From a phage: a stretch of DNA of 64,000 nucleotides. Below the pieces are notes generated by a model, which was not told where the DNA came from, did not search any database, and saw only the letters and a program-made list of their open reading frames with translations. The stretch lies in the NCBI GenBank assembly GCA_024790105.1, contig GCA_024790105.1_3053.1; one strand, written 5' to 3'. Of the stretch, positions 30,920-45,280 are shown piece by piece. Each line of letters starts with the position of its first letter. Position 1 is the stretch's first letter. The position numbers were made by a program, and so were the translations under genes.

Positions 30920-31105
30920 TTAAAGCGTATTCACATAAGCTATTAATTCGTTTTCTTTCTTATCAAACCGATCAGCAAATTCTTCCTGCTGTTCGGGAGA
31001 TAGCGGGCCATATTCATCATAAAAGGTGTTTGCTTCTGTATGCTCATCTAGAAGTTCATGGATAAGCTCAAACAATTTATCTTTTTGTTCTTTACTTAGA
31101 CTCAT
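30920..31105 (-). CDS. Hypothetical acidic protein
   Basis: 61-aa ORF. Confidence 0.4.
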   Translation of the reverse strand: MSLSKEQKDKLFELIHELLDEHTEANTFYDEYGPLSPEQQEEFADRFDKKENELIAYVNTL

Positions 31106-31499: not shown

Positions 31500-31687
31500 T
31501 ATTCTTCTACATGTTGTTTACGACCTTTCTTATCAATAAAGGTATATTCAACGAATGTTCCAATGTAGTCTTTATCTACATCATGTGGACTATTAATTGG
31601 ACATTTAGTACGGCAAATGCGTTCCCATTGACGAATAATTTCCACTTTGTTTTTAGGATCAAACGGATGTGGGTAATGTACTTTCAT
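31475..31687 (-). CDS. Hypothetical protein
   Basis: 70-aa ORF. Confidence 0.4.
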   Translation of the reverse strand: MKVHYPHPFDPKNKVEIIRQWERICRTKCPINSPHDVDKDYIGTFVEYTFIDKKGRKQHVEEYCLKVTWL

Positions 31688-32138
31688 AATCCACCACTAT
31701 TAAATCAATATCAGGAGTAAACATGTCGATTAATTTAGAAACCTTATCCCAATCACCGCCAGCAATACCACAACCTATGCGTGGAATATAAATTACTGGT
31801 TTAAACAAAAGGGTTTCTGCCTGTAGATTTAATTCTATCATGCAGTTTACTAAAGCACCATAATCAAGATTAGGACCTGGTTCGTATTGCGTATACAAGT
31901 TATAACATATGCCAAAACCATTAGGTTTATGTTTAAAAACAATAGACATATCACCGAGTTTTTCACGCGAACCATATTCAGTTGTGGTCTTATCTATTTC
32001 TAAAATTTTGGGATAGGCTCTTGCTAATTGACCCGCTACACCTGAACCCATAGTATGAAAACAATTGCACCCGTGCGCAATAATATTACCTTGAAGAAAT
32101 AGGGCGACAATATCGCCCTTGATATATTTTACAATCAT
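31659..32138 (-). CDS. Macro-domain protein (candidate ADP-ribose hydrolase)
   Basis: GDI...NIIAHGCNC...GSGVAGQL...IYIPRIGCGIAGGD aligns by eye with macro-domain motifs GDIT / VNAAN / GGGVDGAI / AFPAISTGVYGYP. Confidence 0.6.
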   Translation of the reverse strand: MIVKYIKGDIVALFLQGNIIAHGCNCFHTMGSGVAGQLARAYPKILEIDKTTTEYGSREKLGDMSIVFKHKPNGFGICYNLYTQYEPGPNLDYGALVNCMIELNLQAETLLFKPVIYIPRIGCGIAGGDWDKVSKLIDMFTPDIDLIVVDYESTLPTSV

Positions 32139-32482: not shown

Positions 32483-33020
32483 TTACTATTTCCAAAAGTT
32501 TATTATTTTTAAGGTAATTAGCCTTTTCTAGGACTTCAAAAGCATATTTAGAACCAGCTTTAACATTCCATCCCGAATTATAAGAGGATATTGCTTTTCT
32601 TATATCGCCCTTATGTATATTTAACCAATAAGAAAGTTCAATGTACGCCCAGGAAGCTGAATTGGATCGTTTATTCAACATTCTTTTTATTTCAGCATCG
32701 GTCATATTATAACCAAGTTCCTTAACTCTTGCTCGCATAGTAGGCAAATAATTTTGGAACATTCCGTAGGCGTGATGCTTTGGTTTAGATTTTAAATTAA
32801 CTCCGCCAGAGCTTTCTTGCCATAAAATAGCAGCCATTATATGACCTAATCCGCTCTTGTGGATATTTTTGTGTGTTTTATATTTTCCATCCTTAGAAAA
32901 CTGTTCCCCGAATTGATACGCGTAACGCATGTTATCGAGTTGGACATTACTGAAAGTATGCTCGGAGCTATGTGCCATCATAGAAATAGCCAATAGACCA
33001 GCGAGTAGTGCTTTTCTCAT
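32475..33020 (-). CDS. Lytic transglycosylase-like secreted protein
   Basis: Signal peptide; SLT-like E-S...GMFQ catalytic motif (WQESSGG ... YGMFQ). Confidence 0.6.
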   Translation of the reverse strand: MRKALLAGLLAISMMAHSSEHTFSNVQLDNMRYAYQFGEQFSKDGKYKTHKNIHKSGLGHIMAAILWQESSGGVNLKSKPKHHAYGMFQNYLPTMRARVKELGYNMTDAEIKRMLNKRSNSASWAYIELSYWLNIHKGDIRKAISSYNSGWNVKAGSKYAFEVLEKANYLKNNKLLEIVND

Positions 33021-33027
33021 GCTTACC

Positions 33028-33489
33028 TCATTGAGTTTTAATTACTGCTTTAGAAGCCTTTCCTGGTAAACGACGACTGTTAATAATTGCCATCCTGCAT
33101 TGAAGTAACGGGTTTTTGAACTTCTCATTAGGCTTACAAACCGTAAATCCAAGCCAAAGATTTCCATCTGTGATTTCTAAACGTCCAGGACGATATTCAA
33201 CCCCATCAATAAAATCCTCGTCAATGTCAGGACGCGGAGGCATACTCAGGAATTCATTAACTTCTAAAACATGGTCTTTTATTTTATGGAATAATTCAAA
33301 AACATATGTCTCATCAATCTCCCGTTGAATTGCACGATCAAGAAGATGTTGAGAATATTTTAGATGAAACGATGAGACCCCTGCTGCTTTTGATGCCTCA
33401 CGAATCTCATTGTTAATTTGACGAAACTCCGACTCAAAATGACGACGAAGCTTATTTCGACGGATAAAAACTTCTGTATTGATAGTCAT
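33028..33489 (-). CDS. regB: Endoribonuclease RegB
   Basis: 153 aa, T4 RegB length and sequence as recalled. Confidence 0.85.
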   Translation of the reverse strand: MTINTEVFIRRNKLRRHFESEFRQINNEIREASKAAGVSSFHLKYSQHLLDRAIQREIDETYVFELFHKIKDHVLEVNEFLSMPPRPDIDEDFIDGVEYRPGRLEITDGNLWLGFTVCKPNEKFKNPLLQCRMAIINSRRLPGKASKAVIKTQ

Positions 33490-33516
33490 GTTATTCTCCT
33501 CTTAACTGATAGAAAA

Positions 33517-33546
33517 ATTATACCACAGTCAAGAGGAAAAGTAAAC
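33517..33546 (-). promoter_or_regulatory. T4 early-type promoter
   Basis: GTTTAC - 18 nt - TGGTATAAT (extended -10) upstream of regB. Confidence 0.55.
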
Positions 33547-33548
33547 AG

Positions 33549-33869
33549 TTATTCTTTAAATCTGATCAATTTATTCATAGACTTTGAGACTTCTGCACGA
33601 ACCTCATGTAGATTTTTGAGCTGTTCAAGACGCTGCGCATAGTAAGCAATTTCATCTTCTTCTAGACAGTCCTGTGAATCTTCTTTAAGATAACGCGCAT
33701 AGTCCTGGAAAGCATTACGAATTACTTCTTGGAAGTCATCAAGACTTTGAATTTTCTTAGGAGCAACAGATACACGACGAGGGGCAGTATAATACTCATA
33801 ACCAAACCCTGCGCTTAATTGAGCCATTAGTATTTTTCCTCTGGTTGGAACACAGCACGGCAAGCCCAC
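33549..33869 (-). CDS. Hypothetical protein
   Basis: 106-aa ORF, start uncertain. Confidence 0.4.
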
Positions 33870-34129
33870 ATACTGGCTTCTTTGAGTTTCGTTTTAGCAA
33901 TAGTTAACTGATCTAGGCTTTCAGCATAATTCTTTGCGAATTCGTAGTCTTCACAATTATCTAGTGCTTCCCAGAATTCATCATATAAAGCGTCAAAGAT
34001 AAGTCCTAAACGAACTTCAGCGTCTTTGATAGCATTCACTTTACCGATTTTCTCTTCAGTATGTGGTTTATAACCCTTAATATCTTCAATCATATTTGAC
34101 TTCCTCGCCCGTTCCCAAATCATATTCAA
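33827..34129 (-). CDS. Hypothetical small protein (T4 vs.4 position)
   Basis: About 88-100 aa depending on start; positional candidate only. Confidence 0.4.
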
Positions 34130-34307
34130 CTAAACGAATAGGTTCATGAATGCCATATCCCTGAACAGAAATTTCTGTCGTAGGATAAATTCCATTAATA
34201 TCACCCATGTTCCATGCTTCGTTAAATTGATGTTCGCCTGAATTACTAAACCATTTGGCGAAAGCATTTAGCACATCTTCAGAACCTTCAATAATTATCT
34301 TTGCCAT
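34086..34307 (-). CDS. Hypothetical protein
   Basis: 73-aa ORF. Confidence 0.4.
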   Translation of the reverse strand: MAKIIIEGSEDVLNAFAKWFSNSGEHQFNEAWNMGDINGIYPTTEISVQGYGIHEPIRLVEYDLGTGEEVKYD

Positions 34308-34669
34308 TACAAACTCTCGGTAAAGGTACGAGCGATAACGTCGCGCTGCTGTTCCGGAGTCAGAGAGTTAAAGCGAACTGCATAACCGGATACACGGATA
34401 GTCAGCTGCGGATATTTTTCCGGATGCTTAACTGCATCTTCCAGAGTTTCACGACGCAGAACGTTAACGTTCAGGTGTTGACCACCTTCAATTTTAACTG
34501 TAGGCTGTTGCTCAATTTCAATTTCACGGGCATGCAAACCGTAGAAAATTTCTGGGTCTACAAAAGAGTCCTCTTTAAAGGTTTTAGAGACAATAATTCG
34601 TGCTTGAATACCATCTTCAAAATAAATAGTACCTTTATGTGTGCCTTCAAGAATTTGATATGCTTTCAT
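34307..34669 (-). CDS. Autonomous glycyl radical cofactor GrcA/YfiD-like protein
   Basis: C-terminal half contains glycyl radical motif RVSGYAVRF and matches E. coli GrcA C-terminus as recalled. Confidence 0.8.
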
Positions 34670-34676
34670 ATAAACC

Positions 34677-35606
34677 TCAATTAGAAAATAAATTTATCCA
34701 AGATTGTTCTTTAATTAAAAATGGCTCAGAATCATATGCCATTAAACTCTGTGTGATTAGTCCTTTAAAAGGCCCATCAATAAATTCCATGGTAAAATAT
34801 GGAATTTTATTCATTAGCCGTGCATTAGGAGCAGTACACAAAACTCTGCATCCTTTGAATACGCCTTTTTGTAATTTGTATTGCTTGGGATAAAATTCGC
34901 TTAAAATGTTGTTATTTGCCAAAATTTCAAAATGATTCACCAATTTATTTTTAATAGTTTTTGGCGAAAAATAAAGATATTCGAAAAGCTGAGTGTCTGT
35001 CATCATTGCATTCCGATTACGAAAAAACTGTGGACGAGTAATACCACCAATACAACATTTAATATTACAGCAGCAGTGTACAGTGTCAATATGGACACTA
35101 TAAATCTTATCCATATCAGGAGATTTGACAGGCTCATCAATTATATACAAAATTCGCGAAAGCGATAAACCTCTGAACTTGCTTCCTTTATTACCAATAA
35201 AACTGCGCACAGAATCAGTAAATAAACGAAAACGTATATCATCATTAGAATAACGCGAAAATTCCTTTTTAATGTTATTTGCAGAAATTTTAGCGTAAGC
35301 TGAAGTATTAGAAAGAACAATAACTGTTCCACCGTCATACAACCAATTAGCGGCAAAATTAGTTACTGCAATTGATTTACCGGATTGACGTCCACCATCT
35401 ATACGAAGTGTGCAGTACTGTTTAAGTAATTCTTCAAATGGTGGGATATAATCGTTTTTACAAATTTCTTCTACTCTAGCGTCAGAATGGTGTGTAAAAG
35501 CATTCATCAGGGATAGATAAGGACCAGTTAAAAATGTTCTCATTTTATTCTCTCTAAATTTGGGCCATTCCATGGCGCATGAATTGTCCATTTCTGTATT
35601 TACCAC
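34677..35606 (-). CDS. P-loop NTPase of unknown function
   Basis: Walker A GGRQSGKS and Walker B-like LYIIDE; Cys cluster HCCCNIKCC; occupies region where T4 has vs.7/denV. Confidence 0.5.
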
Positions 35607-35623
35607 TCCAAGTAATTATGAAT

Positions 35624-35653
35624 ATACTATCACAATTCTAGGAGAAAGTAAAC
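35624..35653 (-). promoter_or_regulatory. T4 early-type promoter cassette (downstream flank of ipII)
   Basis: GTTTAC with A/T -10 region; near-identical to copy at 36020-36049. Confidence 0.45.
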
Positions 35654-35655
35654 TG

Positions 35656-35958
35656 TTATTTATCTTTAATTACTTTAGCTGCTTCGATAGCCGCTTGCTG
35701 AAGGTCATCCATAGACATACCGAATTTAGAAGCAAAGTTATCAATTTTCTTTTCGACAGCATTCAAAGGCTTGGCCTGTTTACCTTCATTAGCGCCAGGA
35801 AGAGCGAGAATACGCTCTTTGTCAATATAAAGGCTTACAAGTTTCTTACGGTCTTTATCGGACAAATCATGAAATGAATGGGCCTTTTTATTTATAGCGG
35901 CTTCTAATTTACCTGCACTCACTCGCGCTTCAGTAATAAATTCTTGATATGTTTTCAT
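35656..35958 (-). CDS. ipII: Internal protein II-like (capsid-targeted)
   Basis: 100 aa; N-terminal MKTYQEFITEA capsid targeting sequence typical of T4 internal proteins. Confidence 0.7.
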   Translation of the reverse strand: MKTYQEFITEARVSAGKLEAAINKKAHSFHDLSDKDRKKLVSLYIDKERILALPGANEGKQAKPLNAVEKKIDNFASKFGMSMDDLQQAAIEAAKVIKDK

Positions 35959-36019
35959 ATGTTTCCTTTAAATGTAAATATTTTAATTGGTAATTGACTG
36001 TTCAAATAACTGTGAATAT

Positions 36020-36049
36020 ATATTATCACAATTCTAGGAGAAAGTAAAC
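36020..36049 (-). promoter_or_regulatory. T4 early-type promoter cassette (upstream flank of ipII)
   Basis: GTTTAC - 18 nt - TAATAT. Confidence 0.45.
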
Positions 36050-36053
36050 AACT

Positions 36054-37022
<969 letters not shown>

Positions 37023-37041
<19 letters not shown>

Positions 37042-37511
37042 TCAGTGATAAAGTTATTTAAATTTTGAGTATATTTCTTTTCATCAAAAATCTTTTGCTG
37101 TCTGCGTAACCGCCATGGCATTTCAATGAACATACGCCATATTCCTGATAATACTGCTGCTGTAAAAATATTAACAAGTATAGTTAAAAGAACCCAATCT
37201 CCTATTCTGTCCATTGGATTTTTTATAAAAAAGTAAAATACGAACGATGATATAGGAAGACTAATGATATACCACAGAAGAACCTTCTTATCTGTGAACC
37301 AATCAGCATTCGTTAACTTAGCGCGACCGTTTTGAATACATACGAACTTATCATCTGTTACAGTAAATGGCTTAGCTGCTTGATATCCCATTCTAAACTC
37401 CCTAATCAACAAATTTTTCATATCTTCGGAACAACCATTCCAGTCAACTCTATCAACTGAAATGCCATCATCCCCATCATCTAAATCATACCAGCGAGTT
37501 TTTAAAATCAT
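37023..37511 (-). CDS. Membrane protein
   Basis: 162 aa with two central TM helices. Confidence 0.45.
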
Positions 37512-40061: not shown

Positions 40062-40535
40062 TTATTTGATTTGTTTAGCAGACCAAATGCGGTCTTTAAT
40101 AATTTTTTGGATGTCTTCAACATACTCTAGGTCATGAGCATGTGGGTTATCTTTAAAGCTATGAGCACGAGCTAGCTTTTGGCCTTCAGTTTTGATTACT
40201 AAAAGCTCTTTAAGGATAGCTTCATATTTGGAGATAATTCCTTTAACGATATTTTTTTCTTGTGTGACTTTAGGATCTGCTTTAGGAGCAGGTTTACCCG
40301 AAGCCTTTGCAAAAGCAGCGCCAGTAGCAACTAAACTTTTCCAGGCCATACTAACTGCATTTCCCGTAAATCCTTCCGCTTTCATGTCGCGTGCGAACTG
40401 AAATCGCGATTCATTAGAAGCATCTTTGTAAGAATATTTACCCGCTGCAATGGCTGCTTTTGCAACAGCTTGAATTTCGGTGCTAGATGCTTCATTTAAC
40501 ACCGCTTCATTTAAAAATTGAGTATATGATTTCAT
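40062..40535 (-). CDS. Internal-protein-like protein with capsid targeting sequence
   Basis: 157 aa; N-terminus MKSYTQFLNEAVLNE resembles T4 IP capsid targeting sequence plus protease site; Ala/Lys-rich. Confidence 0.5.
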   Translation of the reverse strand: MKSYTQFLNEAVLNEASSTEIQAVAKAAIAAGKYSYKDASNESRFQFARDMKAEGFTGNAVSMAWKSLVATGAAFAKASGKPAPKADPKVTQEKNIVKGIISKYEAILKELLVIKTEGQKLARAHSFKDNPHAHDLEYVEDIQKIIKDRIWSAKQIK

Positions 40536-40929: not shown

Positions 40930-41006
<77 letters not shown>

Positions 41007-41009
41007 TAG

Positions 41010-41675
41010 TTAAAATTTCATTTTTCGACCTTTAAACCATCCTTCTGGAATTGGGTCAGTTTTCTTAATACGTTTAGAAACTTTTTCATCTAATGAATGA
41101 ATCCACATCATGCCAAATTGGGAATTCTTTTCACCTTGTTGGTGTTTATTTCTGGCGTGAGATTCTTTCATTTTATTAATAGTTTCAGGAGTATGGGTCT
41201 TACCCAAGAAAGATTTAGTATTTAAAAATTTCTCTCTATACTTAGGATTATCCCAAAGCTGTTTAAACCTTTCTGAACCCATTTTACGATATTTTTCTTT
41301 AAGGTCTGGGTCGTTCTCAAATCTGGTTTTAAAAGCAGCAGCCCCTTTTAAGGAAGCTTCTTTCTTTTTATCCAAATATTCTTTAGTGTTTAAATGGTCC
41401 CAACCACCTTCACCACCTAATTTCAAATTATAAACATCAGGGCGCTTTAAAAACTCTTCAGTCACAATATTCTTTTCTGACTCAAACATAGAGGTTTTAT
41501 CGTCAAAGAACTCTAATATTTCTTTAGAGAAATTTTCTATACCATACTTGTCTTGGGCTCTTTTTAATAATTTACCAGAACCCATATATCCATCATCTAA
41601 ATTTTCGGTAGAATGAGCGCCTATATAGATTTTATTATTAATTTTATTTGTTATTTTATAAGTGTAATGGAACAT
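41010..41675 (-). CDS. segB: GIY-YIG homing endonuclease SegB-like
   Basis: 221 aa; N-terminal YTYKITNKINNKIYIGAHS GIY-YIG motif; located in the tRNA cluster as T4 segB. Confidence 0.8.
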   Translation of the reverse strand: MFHYTYKITNKINNKIYIGAHSTENLDDGYMGSGKLLKRAQDKYGIENFSKEILEFFDDKTSMFESEKNIVTEEFLKRPDVYNLKLGGEGGWDHLNTKEYLDKKKEASLKGAAAFKTRFENDPDLKEKYRKMGSERFKQLWDNPKYREKFLNTKSFLGKTHTPETINKMKESHARNKHQQGEKNSQFGMMWIHSLDEKVSKRIKKTDPIPEGWFKGRKMKF

Positions 41676-41716
41676 AAATATCTCCTATTTCTAAGAGTAT
41701 TTATGTTCCCAAAATA

Positions 41717-41788
41717 TGGCCCTGGGTGGAATTGAACCACCATCTGGCGATTATGAGTCGCTTGCTTGAACCTTCCAGCTACAGGGCC
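41717..41788 (-). tRNA. tRNA with CAU anticodon (Ile if C34 is lysidinylated, otherwise Met)
   Basis: Manual cloverleaf: acceptor GGCCCTG/CAGGGCC, anticodon loop CTCATAA, T-arm GTGGTTCAATTCCAC. Confidence 0.7.
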
Positions 41789-41794
41789 TTGATA

Positions 41795-41850
41795 TGCTGA
41801 TTGACGGAATCGAACCGCCGACATCCTCATTACAAGTGAGGTGCTCTACC
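41795..41850 (-). pseudogene. tRNA-Thr (UGU) 3' portion; 5' acceptor and D-stem replaced by HNH gene end
   Basis: Anticodon arm CCTCA-CTTGTAA-TGAGG, T-arm and 3' acceptor AATCAGC present; no complementary 5' acceptor strand; stop codon of HNH ORF overlaps D-arm. Confidence 0.5.
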
Positions 41851-42307
41851 ACGCTTCCGTTATTTTGTTTTTATATGCTCTATTCCTTGATTTATACGTA
41901 TCAAGTTGAGAGTCACAATTGGAACAAACAAATCTCAGATTTTCTAATCTATGGTCATTGTTTATTCCATTAATATGATCGAGAATTAAAGGCATTGGTT
42001 TGCCATTCCATACTGCTTCTATTCCACAGATAGAGCACTCATATGGTAATATTTTGTCTTCTATAAGTCTTTTTCTAAGATGGCTTCTGCCGTAAGAAGA
42101 ATTTTCAACCATTACATCACTAAGATTATATCTGTTGGTTTTTGGACCAGTCTTAAGTCCTTTATTCCAGATTTTGCAACCTTTTTGAGCTCCGGCTCCC
42201 TTCCCTCTCACATATTCAGCTTTATTTGGATTAAGTTTGCAATATTTTTCATGCACACTTTTTCCGCCAGCTTGTTTAAATTCTTTATTACAAAATTGAC
42301 AATTCAT
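41846..42307 (-). CDS. HNH homing endonuclease (inserted in tRNA cluster)
   Basis: 153 aa from ATG (MNCQFC); C-terminal HNH motif LDHINGINNDHRLENLRFVCSNCD; ORF track TTG extension rejected. Confidence 0.7.
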   Translation of the reverse strand: MNCQFCNKEFKQAGGKSVHEKYCKLNPNKAEYVRGKGAGAQKGCKIWNKGLKTGPKTNRYNLSDVMVENSSYGRSHLRKRLIEDKILPYECSICGIEAVWNGKPMPLILDHINGINNDHRLENLRFVCSNCDSQLDTYKSRNRAYKNKITEAW

Positions 42308-42323
42308 TATCTTCTCATTTAAT

Positions 42324-42400
42324 TGGGGTGACCGATGGGATTTGAACCTACGACATTCTGCTCCCAAAGCAGACGCTCTACCAAACTGAGCTACACGGAG
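42324..42400 (-). tRNA. tRNA-Pro (UGG)-like; 3' acceptor strand does not pair (possibly defective)
   Basis: Acceptor 5' CTCCGTG, D-arm GCTC/GAGC, anticodon arm TCTGC-TTTGGGA-GCAGA; T-stem has mismatch; 3' strand CGGTCAC not complementary to the 5' acceptor. Confidence 0.5.
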
Positions 42401-42412
42401 TAAATTAAATTT

Positions 42413-42484
<72 letters not shown>

Positions 42485-42490
42485 AAACTT

Positions 42491-42577
42491 TGGTACGAGA
42501 AGTGGGACTCGAACCCACAAGGAAATCATTCCGCAGCATTTTAAGTGCTGTGCCTTTACCAATTTGACCATTCTCGC
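42491..42577 (-). tRNA. tRNA-Leu (anticodon UAA), long variable arm, CCA encoded
   Basis: Acceptor GCGAGAA/TTCTCGT, anticodon arm CAGCA-CTTAAAA-TGCTG, T-arm GTGGG-TTCGAGT-CCCAC. Confidence 0.75.
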
Positions 42578-42583
42578 GTTATA

Positions 42584-43192
42584 TTATTTATTACGTGAAA
42601 AAGACTGTTCTATCAATTCTGGACACTTTCGTTCTATCCATTTTCTAGCTTTTTGTGGGCTTATACCTATTATTTTAGCAGCTTTACTAACCCATCCAAA
42701 TTTAGAATAATCGATTTTAACTAATTCTTCGTAAATTTCATCAGTTAAAATCTTTTCATTAATATTTACCAGTAAATGATATAATTTGTTATCATTAGCA
42801 ATTTTAATGAATCTTTTATAGTTTCCGCCTTTACTTAAACCTAATGAAGTAATTGCAGATGATATAGTAGCCGAATTTAATAATGCGTTTAAAATTTCTT
42901 CATCACTAACATTATAACGCTTTTTATTATTTTTAATATTTTTACCAGCAAAAGTATCAGTTTGCGAGTGACAGTTTGGACATAATAATCTTAAATTTGA
43001 TTTAAGATGATTTTTGTTATTTCCATCAATATGGTCTAATTGCAGAACAATATGCTTATTTTGCCATTTTGAAATTTTACAAATTGCACACTCATATGGA
43101 AAAATATTTTCTTTTATTATTTTGTCTTTCAGCTTTCCTGTGCTAAAATTTGGGTGTTTTCCTTCAAAAATTTCAGCTAATTTAGTATCCAT
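42584..43192 (-). CDS. HNH homing endonuclease with C-terminal helix-turn-helix-like domain
   Basis: HNH motif LDHIDGNNKNHLKSNLRLLCPNCH; paralogous core to ORF 41846-42307; start set at ATG (ORF track begins at upstream TTG). Confidence 0.7.
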   Translation of the reverse strand: MDTKLAEIFEGKHPNFSTGKLKDKIIKENIFPYECAICKISKWQNKHIVLQLDHIDGNNKNHLKSNLRLLCPNCHSQTDTFAGKNIKNNKKRYNVSDEEILNALLNSATISSAITSLGLSKGGNYKRFIKIANDNKLYHLLVNINEKILTDEIYEELVKIDYSKFGWVSKAAKIIGISPQKARKWIERKCPELIEQSFSRNK

Positions 43193-43302
43193 AATATGAT
43201 TCCCAATTATTAACAAAGGCTCTCAAGCAAGAACCCTTGATGATAGAGGGTATTAATCAGTGCGATATGAGTTAATAATAACAAATAATTCTTAAAGCAT
43301 AT

Positions 43303-44253: not shown

Positions 44254-44511
44254 TTATTTTAAATCTTCTAATCGTTTCTTCATCTTAGAACCATTTTTAG
44301 CAATTTCTCCTGCATCGGAGCATAATGCTAAAAGTGCTTTAACTTTAGTTTGGTCTCCTTTAAAAGATGAAGGATCGACTGCAGCAGCAAGTTCTTTAAT
44401 ACGAGAGAAAAGACGCTCAGCTTCAGCTAAAGCCATTCCAAGCTTTACTTCCATGCCATGAGAAGATTCAGTAATAGTAGTTTTTGTAGCAAACTCTTTG
44501 AAAGTTTTCAT
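44254..44511 (-). CDS. ipI: Internal protein I-like (capsid-targeted small protein)
   Basis: 85 aa; N-terminus MKTFKEFATKTTITE resembles IP capsid targeting sequence; adjacent to 57B as T4 ipI. Confidence 0.55.
   Translation of the reverse strand: MKTFKEFATKTTITESSHGMEVKLGMALAEAERLFSRIKELAAAVDPSSFKGDQTKVKALLALCSDAGEIAKNGSKMKKRLEDLK

Positions 44512-44583: not shown

Positions 44584-45280
<697 letters not shown>

Follow-up and report, generated by a model that had tools for sequence, protein, structure and literature searches.

Genomic setting of the locus

The locus examined here is a run of five genes, regB, vs.3, vs.4, vs.5 and vs.6, on the minus strand (33489..34669) of a 64,000-nt stretch of phage DNA, referred to below as the window, and their order is that of the T4 annotation. 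The vs.4 gene, called acb2 (anti-CBASS 2) in what follows, lies where it does in T4, between vs.5 and vs.3, upstream of regB and on the early-gene strand. The features of the locus, together with a second anti-CBASS gene elsewhere in the window, are:

33489..33031, minus strand: regB, located by tblastn
33517..33545, minus strand: sigma-70-type early promoter of regB, read 33545->33517, TTTACT-17-TATAAT with TG upstream
33549..33827, minus strand: vs.3 (92 aa; phrog_2037 in PHROGs, function unknown), tblastn match 33827..33552
33827..34093, minus strand: coding sequence assigned as acb2 (vs.4), ATG start, 88 codons, TAA stop at 33829..33827, translation verified
34094..34129, minus strand: 36-nt 5' extension of the longest ORF (TTG start), which is vs.5 coding sequence and lies outside acb2
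34100..34106, minus strand: Shine-Dalgarno-like GAGGAAG, 6 nt 5' of the acb2 ATG and within the 3' end of vs.5, as seen in the sequence itself
34086..34307, minus strand: vs.5 (73 aa; phrog_1986 in PHROGs, function unknown), tblastn match 34307..34133
34669..34310, minus strand: vs.6, located by tblastn
44584..45039, minus strand: acb1 (gene 57B), 99.3% identical to T4 57B by tblastn and identical to T4 over residues 2-152

When the proteins of T4 were searched against the window with tblastn, the minus strand returned, in order, tk, tk.2, tk.3, tk.4, vs, vs.1, regB, vs.3, vs.4, vs.5, vs.6, vs.7, vs.8, ipII, e, nudE and e.2, and beyond e.2 the order of T4 continued with e.4-e.6, e.8, segB, trna.2-4, 57B, 57A and genes 1, 3, 2 and 4. 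From tk to e.2 the matched proteins were mostly 92-99% identical to those of T4, with lower values for tk.2 (54%), tk.4 (57%) and a frameshifted vs.5. On this gene content and order the window belongs to a T4-like phage genome (Tequatrovirus) and is collinear with T4 over the stretch tk to gene 4. A 2-kb query around acb2 matched 808 phage records (best, 97.8% identical), nearly all of them T4-like phages of Escherichia, Shigella, Yersinia or Klebsiella.

The genes on either side of acb2 are packed against it. The vs.5 stop and the acb2 start overlap by 8 nt (ATGATTGA), and the acb2 stop has one base in common with the vs.3 ATG (TAATG). Because these stop and start codons overlap, the arrangement suggests co-transcription and translational coupling of vs.5, acb2 and vs.3, with vs.5 and acb2 probably coupled in translation. 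Neither vs.3 nor vs.5 had a Pfam match above threshold, and PHROGs placed both in families of unknown function only. The 222-nt vs.5 coding sequence is likewise annotated in phage 232Ecol030PP.

The same gene is drawn differently in T4, where vs.5 is annotated as a frameshifted 58-aa product that ends 36 nt before vs.4, whereas the vs.5 of the window has 73 aa and runs into acb2. The 73-aa ORF (34086..34307, minus) is shared with 232Ecol030PP, and the T4 reference (L001 4382..4558) lacks 1 nt of it in the vicinity of codon 21. T4 DNA beyond this point still keeps the 73-aa frame open and conserved, through to the same ...EEVKYD* end overlapping vs.4, so that a mutation or a sequencing error may lie behind the way vs.5 is annotated in the T4 reference.

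Reading frame and start of acb2

The ORF listing of the window contains a minus-strand ORF at exactly 33827..34129, of 100 aa with a TTG start. This is the ORF that an earlier note on the same DNA had singled out by counting from regB to the vs.4 slot, giving its length as about 88-100 aa; the ORF is real, the count agrees with the tblastn order and the T4 annotation, and the range of lengths spans both the ATG (88 aa) and the TTG (100 aa) version. With T4 Vs.4 as the query, tblastn covered residues 1-88 at 98.9% identity (34093..33830).

The frame is open back to 34129, so that the true product could in principle be a 100-aa form of Vs.4 extended at the N-terminus by a start at the TTG, yet we consider this extremely improbable. 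The 12 codons of the extension are poorly kept against T4, where the same frame reads LNTYYVLVRKSN, while translation of these bases in the vs.5 frame (16 residues compared) gives a sequence conserved against T4. The Shine-Dalgarno-like motif stands before the ATG at 34093 and is invariant in T4 and 232Ecol030PP (alignment columns 214-229), the vs.4 product is annotated as 88 aa in both of these phages, and the functional T4 Vs.4 that was crystallised comprises residues 1-88 (Jenson et al., PMC10097602). The TTG start at 34129 was rejected on the grounds that the extension is unconserved in its own frame and is the conserved C-terminus of vs.5. Because of this pattern of conservation and the 88-aa annotations in T4 and 232Ecol030PP, we take 33827..34093 (minus) as the biological gene and the 100-aa version as merely the mechanical longest ORF.

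Identity of the product

Against all PDB chains, phmmer matched the 88-aa protein to 7UQ2 chain A, 'Vs.4' of T4 solved with cGAMP, at 87 of 88 residues (E 8.1e-56), and more weakly to the Acb2 of phage PaMx33 ('p26'; 8H2J, 8H2X, 8IXZ and others) with an E-value of 0.03. The Pfam family PF24729, Acb2_Tad1_hairpin ('Acb2/Tad1, hairpin domain'), was matched over the whole of its profile (positions 1-58 of 58) with 71 bits (E 9.2e-20), the curated cut-off being 27 bits. The PHROGs profile matched was phrog_717 (E 3.8e-32), the family from which Jenson et al. gathered homologues of Vs.4 (PMC10097602). A single-sequence AlphaFold2 model predicts a two-helix hairpin (helices 13-45 and 50-81; mean pLDDT 80.5), and a Foldseek search of the PDB with this model placed 7UQ2 on top, followed by PaMx33 Acb2 (8H2X/8H2J), with TM scores of only 0.52-0.57. 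The superposition on the 7UQ2 chain is moderate (TM 0.56, rmsd 5 A), which makes the model usable for rough topology only; at that level it has the fold of two long helices in about 90 aa that is a feature of the Acb2/Vs.4 family.

The ORF is not a chance reading frame, as its product matches a crystallised protein at 99% identity, and the gene at 33827..34093 (minus) is almost certainly the orthologue of T4 vs.4, a cyclic-dinucleotide sponge. Every testable feature of the Acb2 family is present, namely the profile score, the pocket residues, the interface residues, the fold and the synteny. The earlier note had guessed at an Acb2-type sponge from position alone and had named similarity to Acb2 (T4 Vs.4) as the thing to look for; the guess is borne out by the match to 7UQ2, by PF24729 and phrog_717 and by the retained contact residues, and the similarity is clear.

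Biologically, the gene is nothing new, being the already characterised gene of T4. The identical protein is already public in 20 contigs and has been deposited, for example, from Escherichia phage vB_VIPECOOM01 (WAE77455.1), under the label 'hypothetical protein' in GenBank and 'Acb2/Tad1 hairpin domain-containing protein' in UniRef; one phage record labels the orthologue 'anti-CBASS protein 2'. No exact DNA match to the gene was found in the phage collection (best, 97.4% over the gene). Hundreds of Tequatrovirus genomes have the gene, 491 records covering at least 80% of it.

Functional residues and predicted ligand spectrum

T4 Vs.4 (NP_049728.1; PDB 7UQ2) binds 3',3'-cGAMP with a Kd of ~30 nM as a hexamer with three ligands (Jenson et al. 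2023, PMC10097602), and a second study gives a Kd of ~84 nM (PMC10312549). In its pocket the bases stack against Y8 and F82 while Y8, H11, K23 and R79 make polar contacts, L29, A66, A73 and A77 form the hexamer interface (F33 with a milder effect), and T12I, S74N and A77I were the mutations that abolished activity in a screen (PMC10097602). Knockout of vs.4 lowered the titre of T4 ~50-fold on CBASS cells with an inactive Cap2 (PMC10097602). The protein of the window retains all of the ligand residues (Y8, H11, T12, K23, S74, R79 and F82) and all of the hexamer and screen residues (L29, F33, L60, A66, A73 and A77), so that the cGAMP-contact and hexamer-interface residues are identical to those of T4, and the differences between the two genes consist of residue 50, Cys in T4 and Tyr in the window, and nine synonymous changes.

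The PaMx33 Acb2 (8H2J, 8H2X, 8IXZ; Huiting et al. 2023; PMC10312549) has in common with the protein of the window PF24729, the hairpin fold and the hexameric sponge mechanism, and its dinucleotide-binding Y11 and K26, the Tyr and Lys found family-wide, align to Y8 and K23. The two differ in sequence, at 23-26% identity in the Foldseek alignments, and in that the PaMx33 protein has a second pocket that binds cyclic trinucleotides, which the T4 type does not. T4 Acb2 binds cyclic dinucleotides and not cA3, which its D61R mutant fails to bind as well, and Cao et al. attribute the closed trinucleotide pocket of T4 Acb2 to Y37, A57, L60, D61 and T64 (PMC10312549). All five of these residues are as in T4 here, and the position of the PaMx33 Arg (R67) is D61. 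The second pocket of the broad-spectrum (CDN + CTN) Acb2 proteins, with R67 and T74 in PaMx33 and a kinked helix admitting cA3, was not found, and on these residues the protein is placed outside the broader-spectrum PaMx33/JBD67 subtype that also takes trinucleotides. Because the pocket-closing residues of T4 are unchanged, a dinucleotide-only spectrum is expected, with cA3 left unbound as by T4 Acb2.

The hairpin domain PF24729 is shared as well with Tad1, the anti-Thoeris sponge, which differs in binding Thoeris gcADPR signals (PMC10680739); nothing here points to such a specificity.

By extension from the work on T4, the 88-aa helical-hairpin protein would assemble into a hexamer with three pockets, each between two protomers and each clamping one 3',3'-cGAMP or other cyclic dinucleotide. 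The purine bases would be stacked on Y8 and F82, with hydrogen bonds and salt bridges from Y8, H11, K23 and R79. The signal would be sequestered and not destroyed, such that the effectors of CBASS, the phospholipase CapV among them, would stay inactive and the phage could complete its cycle. That the Y50 variant sequesters cGAMP and other cyclic dinucleotides and protects against CBASS is something we infer from the C50 protein of T4 at 99% identity.

The same affinity may carry a cost. The decoy 2',3'-c-di-AMP is another ligand of T4 Acb2, and its binding triggers Panoptes, from which phages escape via loss of acb2 or F82C (Sullivan et al., PMC12657218). By analogy, the Acb2 of the window is expected to bind 2',3'-c-di-AMP, and the phage would then be sensitive to Panoptes.

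Residue 50 and selection on acb2

The sole amino-acid difference from T4 Vs.4 is C50Y, encoded by TAC in the window and TGT in T4, and in 232Ecol030PP the residue is Phe (TTT). Across an alignment of 15 close relatives, in which 70 of the 88 columns are invariant, residue 50 is the most variable column (C/D/Y/F). Compared with T4 there are nine synonymous codon differences and one non-synonymous, an excess indicating purifying selection on acb2.

One reading of the substitution is that it changes the function of Acb2, whether in affinity, in the range of ligands or in the stability of the hexamer, or that it lessens capture of the decoy and so weakens triggering of the Panoptes type. In favour of such an effect, the crystallised protein differs at position 50 and nowhere else, the variability of this position among close relatives could reflect diversifying pressure, and ligand spectra vary among other members of the Acb2 family (PMC12393519; PMC10312549). 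We nevertheless regard it as very unlikely, as residue 50 is absent from the contact and interface lists published for T4 Vs.4 (compared with PMC10097602), and the model, in which its placement is approximate, puts it in the first turn of helix 2 by the hairpin loop, at the opposite end of the helices from Y8, K23, R79 and F82, the pocket residues near the two termini, and far from them. Residues as chemically disparate as Cys, Asp, Tyr and Phe in near-identical proteins also make neutrality likelier than tuning. A more specific and highly improbable proposal is that Tyr50, common to few Tequatrovirus phages (e.g., vB_VIPECOOM01), is not neutral and that position 50 is an arms-race hot spot; if so, the choice among C, D, Y and F would tune the stability of the hexamer or the discrimination between the CBASS signal and the decoy 2',3'-c-di-AMP, shifting sensitivity to Panoptes-like systems. 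The gene might, at the other extreme, be a decaying or unexpressed remnant without current function, for which it could be said that the consensus scan described below assigned no promoter to acb2; this has almost no probability given the undamaged, full-length frame and its Shine-Dalgarno motif, the ratio of synonymous to non-synonymous changes, the retention of all functional residues and the presence of the gene in hundreds of Tequatrovirus genomes. A functional orthologue of T4 Vs.4, with its sponge activity carried over, is by far the likeliest reading.

Promoters and the region upstream of regB

RegB cleaves GGAG motifs, including one in its own leader, and regB has its own early promoter. 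The promoter at 33517..33545 is downstream of acb2 and vs.3 and directly 5' of regB, and serves regB and not acb2. The whole 59-nt spacer between vs.3 and regB is base-for-base that of T4, including the ribosome-binding site of regB, AAGAGGAGAA (alignment columns 771-833). A promoter at 33517-33546 had been described in the earlier note and taken as a sign that the region was remodelled; the promoter is real, read as 33545->33517 on the minus strand, and the remodelling is rejected because the spacer, promoter included, is identical to that of T4, which leaves 33517..33545 to be read as the native regB promoter region. A consensus scan for a promoter of acb2 across 33000-37300 returned 15 sites against 17.1 expected in shuffled sequence, and hence no excess.

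Variation in the surrounding genes

Several differences from T4 were seen elsewhere in the window. On the minus strand, vs.8 and vs.7 form one continuous ORF of 309 aa (34677..35606), joined by one extra T in a run of T at ~35026..35031, ~24 nt before the vs.7 ATG, whereas T4 has them in separate frames that overlap at ATGA. The join may reflect a genuine fusion, or else a sequencing error in the homopolymer. Neither denV (endonuclease V, UV repair) nor ipIII had a match anywhere in the 64-kb window, and vs.8, ipII and e directly adjoin one another (35607..35655 and 35959..36053) without them. Because Salmonella phage Manna and Escherichia phages JEP6 and vB_Eco_F26 align to this same layout without a break, the arrangement lacking denV is interpreted as a natural variant.

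No match was found in the window for T4 e.7 or ipI, and their places are occupied by two minus-strand ORFs, 40062..40535 (157 aa, MKSYTQFLNEA...) and 44254..44511 (85 aa, MKTFKEFATK...). Both resemble IpII (MKTYQEFITEA...) at the N-terminus, which makes them candidates for alternative internal head proteins, and no Pfam match was obtained for either. Four tRNAs were detected in the tRNA cluster (40930..43216, minus; Arg-tct, a cat-anticodon Met/Ile, Gly-tcc and Leu-taa) versus eight in T4, and the gaps of the cluster hold ORFs at 41846..42367 (173 aa) and 42584..43216 (210 aa) with weak, sub-threshold matches to HNH endonucleases. A SegB-like gene at 41010..41675 is 84% identical to T4 SegB.

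Just downstream of the vs genes, the poorly matching tk.2 and tk.4 (30923..31105 and 31674..32138, minus) have neighbours that are 93-99% identical to T4, and this is read as local replacement or rapid evolution. In T4, tk.4 is annotated with an A1pp phosphatase motif. A match to tk.1 was not obtained in the window by tblastn of the T4 proteins.

Anti-CBASS genes and implications

In addition to acb2, the window has acb1. The first ATG of T4 57B is ATA here (44584..45042, minus), which shifts the start by one codon and turns the overlap of 57A and 57B from ATGATG to TAATG. Both Acb1 and Acb2 occur in T4, where Acb1 degrades cyclic nucleotides (Cao et al., PMC10312549). Though the two have an anti-CBASS function in the same genome, they are unrelated proteins, one degrading the signal enzymatically and the other sequestering it (PMC10312549). 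The phage thus carries both of the known anti-CBASS genes of T4.

The result is foremost a correction of annotation, in that what most related phage records call a 'hypothetical protein' is to be named acb2, an anti-CBASS cyclic-dinucleotide sponge. The presence of acb1 together with acb2 predicts a T4-like evasion of many CBASS systems. The phage is also predicted to be vulnerable to decoy systems of the Panoptes type, which would be useful to know in work on host range and in the choice of therapeutic phages.
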